A stretch of 7,439 bases of DNA from IMG/VR virus record IMGVR_UViG_2645727715_000009; one strand, given 5' to 3'. The stretch is from a virus. Its lineage: Duplodnaviria; Heunggongvirae; Uroviricota; Caudoviricetes. Below the pieces are notes generated by a model that saw nothing but the letters and a program-made list of their open reading frames with translations, was not told where the DNA came from and searched no databases. Numbering within the stretch: the stretch's first letter is position 1; each line of letters opens with the position of its first letter. Position numbers and translations under genes: made by a program. Of the stretch, positions 2,716 through 7,439 are shown piece after piece.

Positions 2716-2823
<108 letters not shown>

Positions 2824-2839
2824 AAAAAGTTAATCGCTT

Positions 2840-4123
2840 TTACTTCTTCGCCTCTGCAACCACTTTGCTACCCACGCCGCGGTTATTGTATTCCCACATG
2901 CGGTTGTAGTTAGTGTCATTCAGATTACGCTGTACTTCGTCGTTATCATCAACGTTGCCAGTATTACCCGCAAACGGACGATTGGAAATCACCGCATCGG
3001 CCCACGGTTTAGCCGTGTTAAAACCTTCGTTGATGGCGCTATCACGGATCACCACCTGACCGTTGGTATTGGCATCAACATCCAGCGAGCGGCCCAGTTG
3101 CGCCACGCCATCACCAGAAGCATTGAAACGGCTGTTTACGGCGAGGAAACCGTAATAGATGTTTGACAGCGTAGCCGGTGCAAACACATACGCTTCTTGC
3201 TGGGTACGGGAGTTCACCACGCGGAATTCGGTATTATCGAACACCACTGCGCCGCGACCAGAAACGATATCCACATCCCCTTCAATGTAACTGTTGGTCA
3301 CCAGAGTACGCGGCTGACGGTTGGTTTCCAGACGGTTTTGCACACCACTGTTGGTGACAAAGAATGTATTCTGACGACCGAGAATGTTGACGTTATTGAT
3401 CTGCACTTTGTCGCCATCAGTACGCAGTGCCACCGCCGGATGGTTACCCGCATCTACGCTATCACCCAGCGTGTTTTCGATGGTCAGGTTTTGCAGTTGC
3501 AGGCCATTGTTTTGTGACCAGAAGACCGCAGAGCAGAGAACGCCGATACTGTCGCTGCGTTTGCTCTGGCAGCTATCGTACATATACCACGCTGGTTTAC
3601 CTGGCATATATTTGCCGCGCGGGTTGACGTCGTGACGCCAGTCGGCAGGGCTCATGCCCCCATCAAGGGAAAGCCCAATCTTCACATCAATCGGTTTTTC
3701 ACCTGTACCGTACAGAGTAATTCCACCCGGAGCGGCAGGGACATACACCGTTCCCTGATATTCACCAGGCATCACGGCAATATACTGGCGCTTGTTGGTG
3801 CGCTTGATAATTGCCGCATCTACCGCCGCCTGAATCGTGGTATGCGTTACACCTTGAGTACCCGCCGGGCCGACAACAAAGTCAGGTTGCGCAGGCAGGG
3901 TAATCGGGGAAGGATTCCACGCTGCAGCACCTGGCGTCAGGGACGCAAAATAGTGTTGAGCATCGAAATTCTGCGCTTCTTTTGCCGACAGAATCGGGCG
4001 AGAAGAGGTACCAGGCGCGGTTTGATCAGAAGGACGTTGATCGGGCGGTGTTGAGCTACAGGCGGTCAGCGTCACGCCAAAAGCCAATGCCAGCGCCAGA
4101 CGGGAAACTGAAAATGTGTTCAC
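2840..4123 (-). CDS. ybhC: Outer-membrane lipoprotein with pectinesterase fold (YbhC-type acyl-CoA thioesterase), 427 aa, GTG start
   Basis: Signal peptide plus lipobox (LTAC) at the N-terminus; pectinesterase-like motifs (PAVALR, GDVDIVSGRG). GGAG sits 6 nt upstream of GTG at 4121-4123. Lies immediately next to the lambda att core, as expected for ybhC. Confidence 0.85.
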   Translation of the reverse strand: MNTFSVSRLALALAFGVTLTACSSTPPDQRPSDQTAPGTSSRPILSAKEAQNFDAQHYFASLTPGAAAWNPSPITLPAQPDFVVGPAGTQGVTHTTIQAAVDAAIIKRTNKRQYIAVMPGEYQGTVYVPAAPGGITLYGTGEKPIDVKIGLSLDGGMSPADWRHDVNPRGKYMPGKPAWYMYDSCQSKRSDSIGVLCSAVFWSQNNGLQLQNLTIENTLGDSVDAGNHPAVALRTDGDKVQINNVNILGRQNTFFVTNSGVQNRLETNRQPRTLVTNSYIEGDVDIVSGRGAVVFDNTEFRVVNSRTQQEAYVFAPATLSNIYYGFLAVNSRFNASGDGVAQLGRSLDVDANTNGQVVIRDSAINEGFNTAKPWADAVISNRPFAGNTGNVDDNDEVQRNLNDTNYNRMWEYNNRGVGSKVVAEAKK

Positions 4124-4162
4124 AGGTTGCTCCGGGCTATGAAATAGAAAAATGAATCCGTT

Positions 4163-4260
4163 GAAGCCTGCTTTTTTATACTAAGTTGGCATTATAAAAA
4201 AGCATTGCTTATCAATTTGTTGCAACGAACAGGTCACTATCAGTCAAAATAAAATCATTA
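4163..4260. other. attL (B-O-P') of a lambda-type prophage; 15-bp core GCTTTTTTATACTAA at 4170-4184
   Basis: Exact lambda core sequence, followed by P' arm sequence (GTTGGCATTATAAAAAAGCATTGCTTATCAATTTGTTGCAACGAACAGGTCACTATCAGTCAAAATAAAATCATTATTTG) running into the int stop codon. Bacterial arm sequence on the ybhC side. Confidence 0.92.
4209..4260. promoter_or_regulatory. P' arm protein-binding sites: IHF H' (TATCAATTTGTTG) and Int arm-type sites P'1-P'3 (AGGTCACTAT / CAGTCAAAAT / AAAATCATTA)
   Basis: Matches to the IHF consensus WATCAANNNNTTR and the Int arm-type consensus C/AAGTCACTAT read directly from the sequence; assignment by analogy with lambda attP. Confidence 0.7.
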
Positions 4261-5328
4261 TTTGATTTCAATTTTGTCCCACTCCCTGCCTCTGTCATCA
4301 CGATACTGTGATGCCATGGTGTCCGACTTATGCCCGAGAAGATGTTGAGCAAACTTATCGCTTATCTGCTTCTCATAGAGTCTTGCAGACAAACTGCGCA
4401 ACTCGTGAAAGGTAGGCGGATCCCCTTCGAAGGAAAGACCTGATGCTTTTCGTGCGCGCATAAAATACCTTGATACTGTGCCGGATGAAAGCGGTTCGCG
4501 ACGAGTAGATGCAATTATGGTTTCTCCGCCAAGAATCTCTTTGCATTTATCAAGTGTTTCCTTCATTGATATTCCGAGAGCATCAACATGCAATGCTGTT
4601 GGGATGGCAATTTTTACGCCTGTTTTGCTTTGCTCGACATAAAGATATCCATCTACGATATCAGACCACTTCATTTCGCATAAATCACCAACTCGTTGCC
4701 CGGTAACAACAGCCAGTTCCATTGCAAGTCTGAGCCAACATGGTGATGATTCTGCTGCTTGATAAATTTTCAGGTATTCGTCAGCCGTAAGTCTTGATCT
4801 CCTTACCTCTGATTTTGCTGCGCGAGTGGCAGCGACAGGGTTTGTTGTTATATGGCCTTCAGCTATTGCCTCTCGGAATGCATCGCTCAGTGTTGATCTG
4901 ATTAACTTGGCTGACGCCGCCTTGCCCTCGTCTATGTATCCATTGAGCATTGCCGCAATTTCTTTTGTGGTGATGTCTTCAAGTGGAGCATCAGGCAGAC
5001 CCCTCCTTATTGCTTTAATTTTGCTCATGTAATTTATGAGTGTCTTCTGCTTGATTCCTCTGCTGGCCAGGATTTTTTCGTAGCGATCAAGCCATGAATG
5101 TAACGTAACGGAATTATCACTGTTGATTCTCGCTGTCAGAGGCTTGTGTTTGTGTCCTGAAAATAACTCAATGTTGGCCTGTATAGCTTCAGTGATTGCG
5201 ATTCGCCTGTCTCTGCCTAATCCAAACTCTTTACCCGTCCTTGGGTCCCTGTAGCAGTAATATCCATTGTTTCTTATATAAAGGTTAGGGGGTAAATCCC
5301 GGCGCTCATGACTTCGCCTTCTTCCCAT
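4258..5328 (-). CDS. int: Tyrosine site-specific recombinase, phage lambda integrase (356 aa)
   Basis: Translation recognised as lambda Int: N-terminal arm-binding domain (MGRRRSHERRDLPPNLYIRNNGYYCYRDPRTGKEFGLGRD), catalytic box HELRSL and LLGHKSDTMASQYRDD with the tyrosine nucleophile. Stop abuts the P' arm. Confidence 0.97.
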   Translation of the reverse strand: MGRRRSHERRDLPPNLYIRNNGYYCYRDPRTGKEFGLGRDRRIAITEAIQANIELFSGHKHKPLTARINSDNSVTLHSWLDRYEKILASRGIKQKTLINYMSKIKAIRRGLPDAPLEDITTKEIAAMLNGYIDEGKAASAKLIRSTLSDAFREAIAEGHITTNPVAATRAAKSEVRRSRLTADEYLKIYQAAESSPCWLRLAMELAVVTGQRVGDLCEMKWSDIVDGYLYVEQSKTGVKIAIPTALHVDALGISMKETLDKCKEILGGETIIASTRREPLSSGTVSRYFMRARKASGLSFEGDPPTFHELRSLSARLYEKQISDKFAQHLLGHKSDTMASQYRDDRGREWDKIEIK

Positions 5329-5524
5329 TTCTGATCCTCTTCAAAAGGCTACCTGTTACTGGTCGATTTAAGTCAACCTTTACCGCTGATTCGTGGAACA
5401 GATACTCTCTTCCATCCTTAACCGGAGGAGGGAATATCCTGCATTCGCGCACCCATCGACGAACTGTTTCAAGGCTTCTTGGGCGTCGCTGGCGAGCGTT
5501 CCACTCCTGAAGTGTCAAGTACAT
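5306..5524 (-). CDS. xis: Excisionase Xis (72 aa)
   Basis: Translation MYLTLQEWNARQRRPRSLETVRRWVRECRIFPPPVKDGREYLFHESAVKVDLNRPVTGSLLKRIRNGKKAKS recognised as lambda Xis; 3' end overlaps the int start by 23 bp as in lambda. Confidence 0.97.
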   Translation of the reverse strand: MYLTLQEWNARQRRPRSLETVRRWVRECRIFPPPVKDGREYLFHESAVKVDLNRPVTGSLLKRIRNGKKAKS

Positions 5525-5551
5525 CGCAAAGTCTCCGCAATTACACGCAAG

Positions 5552-5572
5552 AAAAAACCGCCATCAGGCGGC
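5552..5572 (-). terminator. Candidate intrinsic terminator on the minus strand about 28 bp upstream of the xis start
   Basis: Minus-strand RNA would read CCGCC-UGAU-GGCGG followed by UUUUUU (plus-strand A6 at 5552-5557). Short all-GC stem, so strength is uncertain. Confidence 0.45.
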
Positions 5573-5742
5573 TTGGTGTTCTTTCAGTTCTTCAATTCGA
5601 ATATTGGTTATGTCTGCATGTGCTATCTGCGCCCATATCATCCAGTTGTCATAGCAGTCATTGATGTTCTCTGCTTAGATAACTCTGTTGAATGGTTCTC
5701 CATTCCATTCACCAGTGACTCTGAAGTGCATTTATCATCTCC

Positions 5743-5768
5743 GTAAAACAAAACTCGCCGTAGCGAGT
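5743..5768 (-). terminator. Intrinsic terminator downstream of the 141-aa gene (minus strand)
   Basis: Stem ACTCGC / GCGAGT (5753-5758 with 5763-5768), 4-nt loop, followed on the minus strand by UUUUGUUUUAC (plus 5743-5752). Confidence 0.6.
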
Positions 5769-5818
5769 TCAGATATAATTTTCACCAAAGGCAGTAGTTG
5801 CTTGATGCTAAGAATTAT

Positions 5819-6244
5819 TCAATATCTATTCCTGTAATATTCTTTTATTTTTTTCCTTGCAAAGACTTTTGCTAGTGATTTTGAAACACTCATAAGAGTA
5901 CTAATTCCCTCATCCTTAAAGTTTGTTTTTATAGCTTGCCAGACCTCCTTTTGACGTAAGTCAGCAATAAAATCATGCCCTCTTGCTGTCAACCTCAGTG
6001 GTACTTCGATCCAACTATATTCAACACCTTCCCCTAACTCGTTGGACATTATATGACCGAACCCTGGTTTTCCATCAACCCTAACTATTAATTCGTAGTC
6101 ACATAATAATCGCATATGGAAAATAAAATTTTGGTCATATCTATTAAAGCCATTATCCTCTAGTTCACTAAGCATCGTGTCAGGGCCATAAGTTTTTTCG
6201 AATGCGATAAGTAGATCTTTTAGATATTGCTGGTCTAATTTCAT
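5819..6244 (-). CDS. Small AT-rich prophage accessory protein (141 aa), DUF2513-like (putative winged-helix); function unknown
   Basis: Clean ORF with strong SD (GGAGG, 5-nt spacer, ATG) and TGA stop. Sequence pattern MKLDxxYLKDLLIAFE ... FIFHMRLLCDYELI ... LRLTARGHDFIADLRQKEVW resembles the DUF2513 family as I remember it; needs HMM confirmation. Markedly AT-rich by eye relative to the host genes and int. Confidence 0.8.
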   Translation of the reverse strand: MKLDQQYLKDLLIAFEKTYGPDTMLSELEDNGFNRYDQNFIFHMRLLCDYELIVRVDGKPGFGHIMSNELGEGVEYSWIEVPLRLTARGHDFIADLRQKEVWQAIKTNFKDEGISTLMSVSKSLAKVFARKKIKEYYRNRY

Positions 6245-6249
6245 TGCCG

Positions 6250-6300
6250 CCTCCGTGACATGTCACAGAGATTTATATCATTAATTTTGTTTCGTGCCAG
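6250..6300 (-). promoter_or_regulatory. Predicted sigma70 promoter with extended -10 (TGATATAAA), a 12-bp perfect palindrome GTGACATGTCAC at the predicted transcript start, and the SD of the 141-aa gene
   Basis: On the minus strand: -35-like CTGGCA (plus 6295-6300), 17-nt spacer, TG-n-TATAAA (plus 6272-6280), palindrome at plus 6255-6266, GGAGG at plus 6250-6254. All read by eye; no expression data. Confidence 0.4.
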
Positions 6301-6611
6301 CCTTTGGTCACCCAGTATTGTGAGTCACCATTACACGGGCATGAATTAACAGGAACTCTCTCGCCGCACTTACGGCAACGTTTTCTGCTAATCGATTTTA
6401 TACGCCAGCGCACACGTGCATCATCCTGGCGGCTCAGTAATGCTATGTACTCACCAAACTCGTAAGGCGCACGCCTGAAGCGGCGCGTGGCTCAGTTACG
6501 CTCCAGCATTTCAATTTCCTGAGCATCAAGTACAAGCTCCAGCTTACGCATACCGGATGATGCTTGCTTGGCTCTCTGATCGGCTTTGCGCTCTGCTGCT
6601 GATCTAGTCAT
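6273..6611 (-). pseudogene. 112-codon reading frame interrupted by a single in-frame TGA (6492-6494): 39-aa basic N-terminal segment plus 72-codon C-terminal segment with a C-X2-C-X8-C-X-C zinc-ribbon-like motif. Could be a nonsense-disrupted gene, two small genes, or a readthrough product
   Basis: Hand translation of the minus strand: ATG at 6611 (AGGA 8 nt upstream) gives MTRSAAERKADQRAKQASSGMRKLELVLDAQEIEMLERN, then TGA, then in frame ATRRFRRAPYEFGEYIALLSRQDDARVRWRIKSISRKRCRKCGERVPVNSCPCNGDSQYWVTKGWHETKLMI, then TAA at 6273-6275. Absent from the ORF track because each piece is under 60 aa from a start codon. Confidence 0.3.
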
Positions 6612-6804
6612 TCTGCTTTTCCTGCATCAGGAGAAAGACAATCATGGCGGCGCGGATACTTCCGGTATCTTTTTACGCGATATTACCCTTCAATGGCACA
6701 TACAAGAAGACAGCCATCAGCAGGAATGAGTGAGGAATCGACAACCAGTAACGCTTAATTATCTATAGTGTCGTATTTGCTTCATAAAATATGGCGAATA
6801 ACAC

Positions 6805-6836
6805 AAAGCCCGCAGCAGCTCATTGTGCGGGCTTTT
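6805..6836. terminator. Hairpin terminator, possibly bidirectional, downstream of the 5'-partial ORF
   Basis: Stem AAAGCCCGCA / TGCGGGCTTT (6805-6814 with 6826-6835), 11-nt loop, followed by TTTTCTTAT on the plus strand and by UUUGUGUUAUU on the minus strand. Confidence 0.55.
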
Positions 6837-6904
6837 CTTATACTTACTTCCTGGAGATAATTCTATGGAGGCATTAAATTAATGCTGTCATTGGTAATAT
6901 CATA

Positions 6905-7439
6905 TTATCTAAAAGTCTTTCCACTTTTAACGTCTAGATATATTCTGTTCGACAACGTCATTCCTCCGCAATATGTGAAATAGATGTTTTCACCCTTATT
7001 GCTTGATGCCATCCACCCTCCGATTTCCTTAAAATCGCTTTCCGTGCAGACCCCTTCATTTATTAACTTCCTAGCTGCCGAAGAAAACTCTTTTTTGTAT
7101 ATACGGTAGTCATCAGATCCTTTGATTAAAGTATCATCTCCGCTCGCATTTTCAGCAGGATCTGATGGCCTTTCACTGCTAAGATCACTAAGTTTAACCC
7201 ATTCTGAAAACTTGCCATTAACGATTCCATTTTTTCTTGTGCAGGATTTATTACCTTCTTTAATATATTCGCTTTCCCCTCCAACACATGAGGCTGAATA
7301 TGGCTCAGTTATACGAACCCATTCACCTTTTTTTTTTCTAGAAAATCTACGCCTTCCCTGAAAAAAAAAATAGTTTCCCAGCCACTCCACATTTACTTGA
7401 AGGGCAGGTATGTCTTTCCGTTCGATCAACAACAACCCA
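6905..7439 (-). CDS. Hypothetical prophage accessory protein, 5'-partial (frame open to the window edge); at least 177 codons; AT-rich
   Basis: Minus-strand ORF ending at TAA (6905-6907). The M in the ORF track is a TTG at 7433-7435, but the codon upstream of it (GGG) is also open, so the real start probably lies beyond the window. No motif I can assign. Contains T10 and A10 runs near its 5' end. Confidence 0.6.
   Translation of the reverse strand, partial: GLLLIERKDIPALQVNVEWLGNYFFFQGRRRFSRKKKGEWVRITEPYSASCVGGESEYIKEGNKSCTRKNGIVNGKFSEWVKLSDLSSERPSDPAENASGDDTLIKGSDDYRIYKKEFSSAARKLINEGVCTESDFKEIGGWMASSNKGENIYFTYCGGMTLSNRIYLDVKSGKTFR
7328..7370. repeat. Inverted homopolymer pair T10 (7328-7337) - 23 nt - A10 (7361-7370) inside the partial ORF
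   Basis: Counted directly. On the coding (minus) strand this is T10 (codons YFFFQ) followed by A10 (codons RKKKG). An XbaI-type palindrome TCTAGA lies between them. Confidence 0.9.

Follow-up and report, generated by a model that had tools for sequence, protein, structure and literature searches.

The DNA examined in this study, hereafter the window, is a whole draft contig of 7,439 bp, in which E. coli ybhJ and ybhC are followed by the lambda att core (GCTTTTTTATACTAA, 4170-4184, an exact match to lambda) and then by int (lambda-type, 4258-5328) and xis (5306-5524), both on the minus strand. Because ybhJ and ybhC, the exact att core and lambda-type int and xis sit together, the window is one end of a lambdoid prophage at attB-lambda, beside ybhC. 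Beyond xis lie, all on the minus strand, a homolog of lambda ORF55 (5564-5731), a terminator-like hairpin with a T-tract (5741-5770), a DUF2513 open reading frame (5819-6244), a gene of the phrog_536 family (6273-6611) and a phrog_8310 reading frame (6905-7435; 205 aa in full) that runs past the contig end. The ORF55 homolog is a pseudogene with a TAA at codon 19 (5675-5677), where lambda has GAA; this early stop is common to the window, E. coli LZHX12 and a few viral loci. The phrog_8310 frame had no match in Pfam, PADLOC or NCBIfam and corresponds to a conserved gene upstream of phrog_536 in Chlobot-type phages.

The comparison set comprised about 350 related loci. The environmental phage Chlobot (PP925838) is 98.0% identical to the window over 4170-7439, and E. 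coli LZHX12 is 98.7% identical over 2723-7439, which makes it near-identical, not identical. The LZHX12 prophage (L107; NZ_CP155555, 3.232-3.251 Mb) is a patchwork remnant at attB-lambda, in which the 205-aa gene is followed by ninD, an rzpD fragment, bor, ybcV, ybcW, ylcI, terS, gpJ fragments, lom and a tail fibre, and from which the immunity region, the replication genes and the recombination genes are all absent.

A first-pass annotation, made from the window alone, had described the DUF2513 gene as a self-contained moron with its own promoter, start-site palindrome and terminator inside the pL-side operon. Morons are extra prophage genes that form transcription units of their own, such as bor and lom of lambda and gp15 of HK97; the concept is said to come from Juhala, Hendrix and colleagues.

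The DUF2513 gene, its product and its family

The DUF2513 frame encodes 141 aa in the window and 142 aa in relatives. The strong Shine-Dalgarno sequence noticed earlier is present (GGAGG, 6250-6254, minus strand), lies 5 nt before the ATG and, as we infer, forms the first bases of DUF2513-specific DNA. Assignment to the family was borne out by an HMM search, in which the Pfam profile (PF10711) matched at E = 7e-11 with 42.8 bits against a cutoff of 29.6, residues 2-115 of the protein covering positions 1-100 of the 100 in the profile; phrog_585 also matched the 141-aa protein (E = 3e-33). An AlphaFold model built with 40 homologs (pLDDT 92.2, pTM 0.82) runs from three helices through a four-strand wing (residues 53-85) and two short helices to a long C-terminal helix (114-140). 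The winged-helix pattern read from the sequence thus reappears in the model, and the protein is predicted to fold as a MarR/PadR-like winged helix with C-terminal helices. Pfam gave no MarR or PadR match and the PDB no sequence match, a search of a viral fold library with the model returned nothing, and PADLOC 2.0, which has no DUF2513 model, left the window protein unmatched. The remark that the family has no established function also holds, with no match in PADLOC or NCBIfam and a literature search on DUF2513 that yielded one unrelated paper naming it.

Relative to Chlobot and the family consensus, the window carries an extra A at 5840-5841 (minus strand; GAA in place of GA). This 1-nt insertion shifts the last 7 codons, turning DITGIDIE into EYYRNRY where the family consensus ends in ...AKKKIKDITGIDIE, and the unshifted frame would stop at the TAA at 5815-5817. 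The basic C-terminal tail that had been proposed is present, and the conserved part of the basic patch in DUF2513 is A(K/R)KKIK, but YYRNRY itself results from the insertion and is absent from the family consensus. Since the exact 141-aa protein is on record solely from this 7.4-kb contig, the insertion could reflect either a mutation or an error in sequencing. The window copy retains 134 of 142 codons intact, every conserved residue included.

The family comprises 1,616 cluster representatives at E <= 0.001, mostly of ~135 aa. Its recurrent positions are after Rz, directly before terS and before xis/int, with no constant partner gene over the family contexts compared. Of the 55 unique contexts of DUF2513, 31 have a hairpin with a T-run within 120 nt of the stop, compared with 93 of 629 control ORFs (15%), and at least 17 different hairpins occur among the terminator-followed contexts. 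These results show that DUF2513 usually ends at a terminator, and to this extent the cargo habit of a moron, as supposed for the window gene, is a habit of the family.

Among the E. coli-type loci, the full 142 aa of DUF2513 are present in 40 of 43, and ORF55 is broken in 12 of the 43 by at least 3 independent lesions. The phrog_536 gene is broken in 25 of the 42 loci with an intact DUF2513, by at least 5 independent lesions, and a type II toxin-antitoxin pair was rejected on this count. Within-lineage dN/dS was 0.38 for DUF2513, 0.65 for phrog_536 and 0.16 for ORF55. Retention of DUF2513 by selection is suggested by these sequence comparisons, and is put at that strength because a value of 0.38 is unremarkable beside the 0.16 of ORF55.

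A few DUF2513 representatives carry C-terminal TIR domains. One (P0150) matches PF10137 (E = 8e-21) together with the PycTIR and PDC-S35 models, another (P0233) matches TIR_2 (E = 3e-19) together with the ThsB and PDC-S66 models, and a third (P0217) matches the PDC-S60 model. Additionally, Serratia prophages hold a 305-aa gene 19 nt upstream of DUF2513 with a weak TIR-effector match (E = 1e-4). The fusions in distant relatives and this one weak neighbour match hint at a role in conflict.

Origin of the flanking signals

The gene upstream of DUF2513 belongs to a family of 112-aa, Cys-rich proteins (phrog_536) that PHROG labels 'transcriptional regulator'. In the window it is a pseudogene with an in-frame TGA at codon 40 (6492-6494), which is TGT in intact copies; of 43 related loci, 20 have the same stop, as does LZHX12, whose RefSeq annotation notes an 'internal stop'. 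The Chlobot copy is intact, and its record annotates just the last 46 codons along with an overlapping 106-aa 'UmuD-like' ORF in another frame, apparently an artefact of annotation. The phrog_536 protein gave no Pfam, NCBIfam or PDB match and a poor AF2 monomer model (pLDDT 58); an RHH fold, which we had read from its sequence pattern, is unsupported by either.

Between this gene and the Shine-Dalgarno sequence lies the 12-bp palindrome GTGACATGTCAC (6255-6266), which had been placed at the predicted transcription start of DUF2513. Shuffles of the window contain on average 1.8 perfect 12-bp palindromes; because chance alone gives one per 7.4 kb, the reality of this one is shown only by its conservation elsewhere. 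A second perfect 12-bp palindrome in the window, TTTTCTAGAAAA at 7334-7345 inside the phrog_8310 frame, fits the chance expectation.

Conservation was examined in a survey of phrog_536 that covered 274 loci from viral contigs, reduced to 130 unique gene ends. The sequence GTGACATGTCAC occurs with at most one mismatch at 108 of the 130 ends and its exact 10-bp core at 99; wherever it occurs, the site has the 12-bp form GTGAC-AT-GTCAC. The 99 ends over which it is invariant come from E. coli-, Salmonella-, Citrobacter-, Klebsiella-, Yersinia- and Cronobacter-type phages, while the synonymous sites just upstream and the bases from +13 on are near random. The commonest layout has no TATAA box, and there the TGA within the palindrome is itself the stop codon of phrog_536; E. 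coli genomes with phrog_536 but without DUF2513 read ...AAATTAATAGTGTGACATGTCACGAG... followed by the terminase small subunit, again with the palindrome's TGA as the stop. At least 15 unrelated cargos follow the palindrome, similarity ending directly after GTCAC(G/A), and DUF2513 follows just 13 of the 130 ends. The palindrome is thus without DUF2513 in ~90% of cases, and some DUF2513 loci are without the palindrome. These counts (108/130 ends with the site; 13/130 with DUF2513) exclude DUF2513 as the specific partner of the palindrome, and autoregulation of DUF2513 through it was rejected. The palindrome is present and perfect, as had been reported; it is not DUF2513's own, and tracks the 3' end of the upstream phrog_536 family whatever lies downstream.

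Some loci of terminase-linked phages carry a second copy of the palindrome, TGACATGTCA, after terL and a terminator-like hairpin (AGCCAGC-TCATC-GGCTGGCT; L105/L106 at ~4911, L116 at ~5288), and the DNA downstream differs between loci from that point. Extra copies numbered 57, against ~1.3 expected by chance; Chlobot has a single copy.

Both half-sites, GTGAC and GTCAC, are shared with matS of E. coli, the consensus of which is quoted as GTGACRNYGTCAC, 13 bp, in PMC6907758, citing Mercier 2008. The phage palindrome differs from matS in its length of 12 bp and its fixed AT centre. Comparison of phrog_536 with MatP by hhalign gave a probability of 0.1%, and there was no Pfam MatP match. With the spacing different and the protein comparison negative, a MatP/matS relationship was rejected and the resemblance is one of DNA only. 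Rfam had no match for the palindrome region, and a literature search for the 12-mer returned no description of a palindrome-marked cargo slot, which appears to be previously undescribed.

The other cargos downstream of the palindrome are diverse. A 109-aa protein starting MGFPSPANDY..., which we take to be UmuD/S24-like, is frequent (L226-L230, L316, L333, L342 and others), and upstream of it TTGACT, a spacer of ~17 nt and TATACT running into CTGT... read like an SOS-regulated promoter. Further cargos (L287:2384-3121, L277, L299, L330) include a 246-aa protein with a below-threshold match to HEPN_RiboL-PSP (E = 0.0045), one membrane protein of the bPH_2 type and orphans whose N-termini carry transmembrane segments. 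Proteins of the HEPN, bPH_2 and transmembrane types are often met among exclusion and abortive-infection genes. A reading of the slot as a defence hotspot was dropped, ten alternative cargos having given no PADLOC match and one sub-threshold HEPN-like Pfam match. In one E. coli DUF2513 copy (L056, 1-127), what is presumably an IS1 terminal inverted repeat lies exactly between the position of the palindrome and the Shine-Dalgarno sequence; this foreign DNA was the ground for dismissing the copy as a mosaic junction between the two.

The box TGATATAAA (6272-6280, minus strand), predicted earlier as an extended -10 element, is made up of one extra base and the closing codons of the upstream gene, ATG ATA TAA (Met-Ile-stop). 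Its hexamer, TATAAA, is without the conserved final T, and the best -35 candidate, CTGGCA at 17 bp spacing, coincides with Gly-Trp-His codons of the same gene. A sigma-70 consensus scan found no promoter on the minus strand of the window, and a consensus scan upstream of DUF2513 in four other independent contexts found none. The window belongs to a minority layout in which a gap of 2-6 nt (4-6 in most) separates NTA and TAA or TAG from the palindrome downstream. Because all 23 unique gene ends of this layout share the form NTA + TAA/TAG and several precede cargos other than DUF2513, the extended -10 is the neighbour's last codons and stop. The predicted box is therefore real as sequence, and a promoter of DUF2513's own is unsupported. 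The best argument favouring an internal promoter is that diverged lineages keep TGnTATAA as a nucleotide string by means of rare NTA codons, so that the box could have been selected as a -10; the end of the upstream gene may possibly form a weak internal promoter.

A DUF2513 subgroup of ~45-50% identity (L009, L010, L012, L014) has another conserved upstream element, GGCATTCACTGAGTGCCTGTGATAAT, ~40-70 nt before the start. This imperfect palindrome, which overlaps a TGnGATAAT-like box, went unflagged by the consensus scan and could be a genuine promoter or operator for DUF2513 copies of this type.

The downstream end of the DUF2513 cassette was placed by aligning the DNA after the stop codon in the window, Chlobot, lambda, 434 and HK022. 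The cassette ends in a 3' untranslated tail of ~40 nt (5778-5818, minus strand), homology of lambda, 434 and HK022 with the window restarts at ~5777, and the hairpin GAACTCGCTACGGCG(A/G)GTTTTGTTTT with all that lies downstream (ORF55, xis) is common to the five phages aligned. In the window the hairpin reads GAACTCGC-TACG-GCGAGTTT (5751-5770), is followed by TGTTTT and has 8 pairs and a UACG loop (-14.3 kcal/mol, z = -3.4). It begins 48 nt after the DUF2513 stop, so that the canonical terminator said to lie ~50 bp downstream of the gene is found there with its T-tract; its ownership is another matter. Lambda, 434 and HK022 share the hairpin at the identical position yet lack the gene, and the hairpin therefore did not arrive with DUF2513.

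In both the window and Chlobot, DUF2513 and the 40-nt tail stand in place of lambda ea8.5 and the first tL4 hairpin. The tL4 terminator is annotated in 434 (M60848) and HK022 (X51962) at the same position upstream of ORF55 as the window hairpin, which is the conserved second hairpin directly after tL4; the annotated tL4 hairpin (ATCCTCG...CGAGGAT and a T-run) is absent from the window. A literature search for tL4 found nothing. The retained hairpin of the window and Chlobot shows a G-to-A change (GCGGGTT to GCGAGTT) relative to lambda, 434 and HK022, which replaces a G-U pair with A-U; the change possibly strengthens the stem and compensates for the lost first tL4 hairpin. The backbone hairpin can still end a transcript.

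Expression of the gene and competing explanations

Chlobot is a complete lambda-like genome in which one strand carries, in order, N, ral, kil, gam, bet, exo, several small genes, phrog_536, DUF2513, ORF55, xis and int, and DUF2513 is therefore a distal pL-operon gene there. The same distal pL genes lie upstream in 33 of 40 E. coli-type viral loci, and no terminator-like site of any strength was found between the upstream genes and DUF2513. The proposed location inside the pL-side operon is accordingly sound for the intact relative Chlobot; the window contig itself ends at 7439. In the LZHX12 remnant, N, cI, exo and pL are deleted and DUF2513 is intact. A description of the prophage as a remnant without pL is true of LZHX12, but was rejected for the group as a whole on the 33 of 40 loci that keep the distal pL genes.

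Taken together, these results lead us to regard the locus, with a probability of roughly 0.6, as a swappable accessory cargo gene with borrowed signals that is read from pL. The self-contained unit of the first-pass annotation dissolves on comparison, with palindrome and box belonging to phrog_536, the hairpin belonging to the lambda backbone and the promoter scan negative. According to our reading, a lambda-like prophage at attB-lambda would possess a variable slot for which DUF2513 is one of at least 15 alternative cargos. The DNA specific to DUF2513 would extend from the Shine-Dalgarno sequence (6254) to ~5778 and comprise that sequence, the ORF and the 40-nt tail, flanked by a palindrome and TATAA box that would be the 3' end of phrog_536, fronting many unrelated cargos, and by a hairpin that would be lambda backbone upstream of ORF55-xis-int. 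In Chlobot, an intact phage, DUF2513 would be transcribed from pL as a distal gene under N antitermination, and transcripts unmodified by N would stop at the backbone hairpin. The product would be a small winged helix, probably dimeric via the long C-terminal helix of the model, that most likely binds nucleic acid or another conserved ligand, and the TIR fusions and genome positions suggest a role in phage-host or phage-phage conflict; it would not act through the adjacent palindrome. Counting against this explanation are the retention of TGnTATAA described above and LZHX12, which is without pL or N yet has an intact DUF2513 and so favours independent expression.

Transcription in the lysogen from TGATATAAA, with the palindrome as an operator at +1 and an end at the hairpin, would make the gene an autonomous moron after all, and we think this unlikely. 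The elements are suitably spaced (CTGGCA, 17 bp, TG-n-TATAAA and 6-7 nt before the palindrome), and TATAA or TATAG is kept via rare NTA codons in all 23 unique ends of the layout, with TGn kept in E. coli, Enterobacter and Cronobacter-type lineages. A terminator follows the gene, which stays intact in decaying prophages including the remnant without pL, and the family elsewhere occupies classic moron positions, for example after Rz. The comparative evidence, however, assigns all three signals to neighbours, the -35-like bases are fixed by the Gly-Trp-His codons, the hexamer is without its final T, and the scan returned no promoter in the window or the four other contexts. Moreover, box and palindrome do not form a unit, because the palindrome is also kept in the commoner layout without TATAA. 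Another proposal, that in this contig DUF2513 is a decaying remnant without current function, seems distinctly improbable to us. Both neighbours are pseudogenes, the last DUF2513 codons are frameshifted, a close relative sits in a heavily deleted prophage and truncated variants exist in E. coli; against this stand the 134 of 142 intact codons with every conserved residue, the full-length gene in 40 of 43 related loci, and a frameshift seen in one short draft contig only, where it is possibly a sequencing error.

Two further explanations concern the palindrome. It may be an operator that gates or insulates the downstream cargo, DUF2513 included, with the phrog_536 protein or a conserved protein of the host as its reader, and we regard this as a tentative possibility. 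An invariant site over 99 unique ends amid near-random flanking positions argues for it, as do the second copy after terL, again at a junction to variable DNA, and the PHROG label of phrog_536 as a 'transcriptional regulator'. The likeness to matS (GTGACRNYGTCAC) at the DNA level points the same way but is offset by the absence of MatP homology (hhalign 0.1%) and by a site of 12 bp, not 13. The phrog_536 protein, for its part, has an AF2 pLDDT of 58 and neither a Pfam nor a PDB match, its N-terminal segment varies while the site is constant, the same segments occurring with and without the palindrome so that no co-variation was seen, and it would be unusual for a gene to carry its own operator at its 3' end. 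Alternatively the palindrome could act in RNA, where with its flanks it would form a hairpin that hides the DUF2513 Shine-Dalgarno sequence and limits translation. The predicted fold in the window lineage, UCUCUGUGA-CAUG-UCACGGAGG, reaches -10.8 kcal/mol (z = -2.7) with the whole of GGAGG paired, and the Shine-Dalgarno sequence directly follows the palindrome in every DUF2513-linked locus. This is highly doubtful nonetheless: the flank pairing is unconserved, other lineages adding 1-2 pairs to the 4-bp core, the core is invariant and not co-varying, the palindrome is equally conserved where no Shine-Dalgarno sequence follows, and Rfam gave no match.

As a speculation to which we give a minor share of belief, GTGACATGTCAC could be a boundary or operator element of enterobacterial temperate phages, located at the 3' end of phrog_536 with a second copy after terL in some, that marks a slot in which cargo is exchanged and perhaps gated by the phrog_536 protein or by a host factor with MatP-like specificity; DUF2513 would then be a sensor-type winged helix of conflict systems, a role suggested by its TIR fusions.

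Significance and comparison with known systems

The DUF2513 locus is an ordinary accessory gene of a catalogued family and, taken by itself, of modest value. Signals round one phage gene that resemble a promoter, an operator and a terminator can each come from a different mosaic module, and a moron call from a single sequence is therefore unsafe. The near-invariant 12-bp palindrome makes it easy to find, by sequence, a slot for cargo exchange in enterobacterial prophages, and together with phrog_536 it makes a candidate protein-DNA pair that is open to test. The link between DUF2513 and TIR domains offers a first experimental angle on a family of ~1,600 clusters without known function.

DUF2513 resembles the lambdoid morons as an extra, non-essential gene between conserved genes that varies between phages and usually has a terminator after it, and like morons the family is often found after Rz or before terS. 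At the window locus the gene lies between otherwise adjacent genes, with at least 15 alternative cargos known for the place and the backbone resuming at ~5777. Unlike in a moron, the promoter-like box and the terminator are parts of neighbouring modules: the hairpin, which lambda, 434 and HK022 also have, was not brought in by the gene, and as regards an own promoter the consensus scan is negative and the TGATATAAA box is the upstream stop region without a final T.

The model shares the winged-helix fold with MarR, PadR and HxlR regulators and with Pfam YjcQ (PF09639), a family on which a literature search found nothing. There is no sequence-level membership in any of these groups, Foldseek E-values are only ~0.07, and the wing of DUF2513 is an unusually long four-strand insert unlike theirs. 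Regulators of the MarR/PadR type bind as dimers to a palindromic operator at their own promoter, whereas the palindrome adjacent to DUF2513 is not specific to the DUF2513 protein. In some TIR defence effectors (ThsB, PycTIR and the PADLOC candidates PDC-S35, S60 and S66) DUF2513 serves as the N-terminal module; the window protein, unlike these, has no effector domain and no PADLOC match.

The ea8.5/ea22 region of lambda occupies the same place on the map, from the exo-side genes to tL4-ORF55-xis-int, and the same strand as DUF2513. The two have no sequence relationship, DUF2513 having replaced ea8.5 and the first tL4 hairpin, but ea8.5/ea22 are dispensable cargo expressed from pL with N antitermination, as we propose for the DUF2513 slot.
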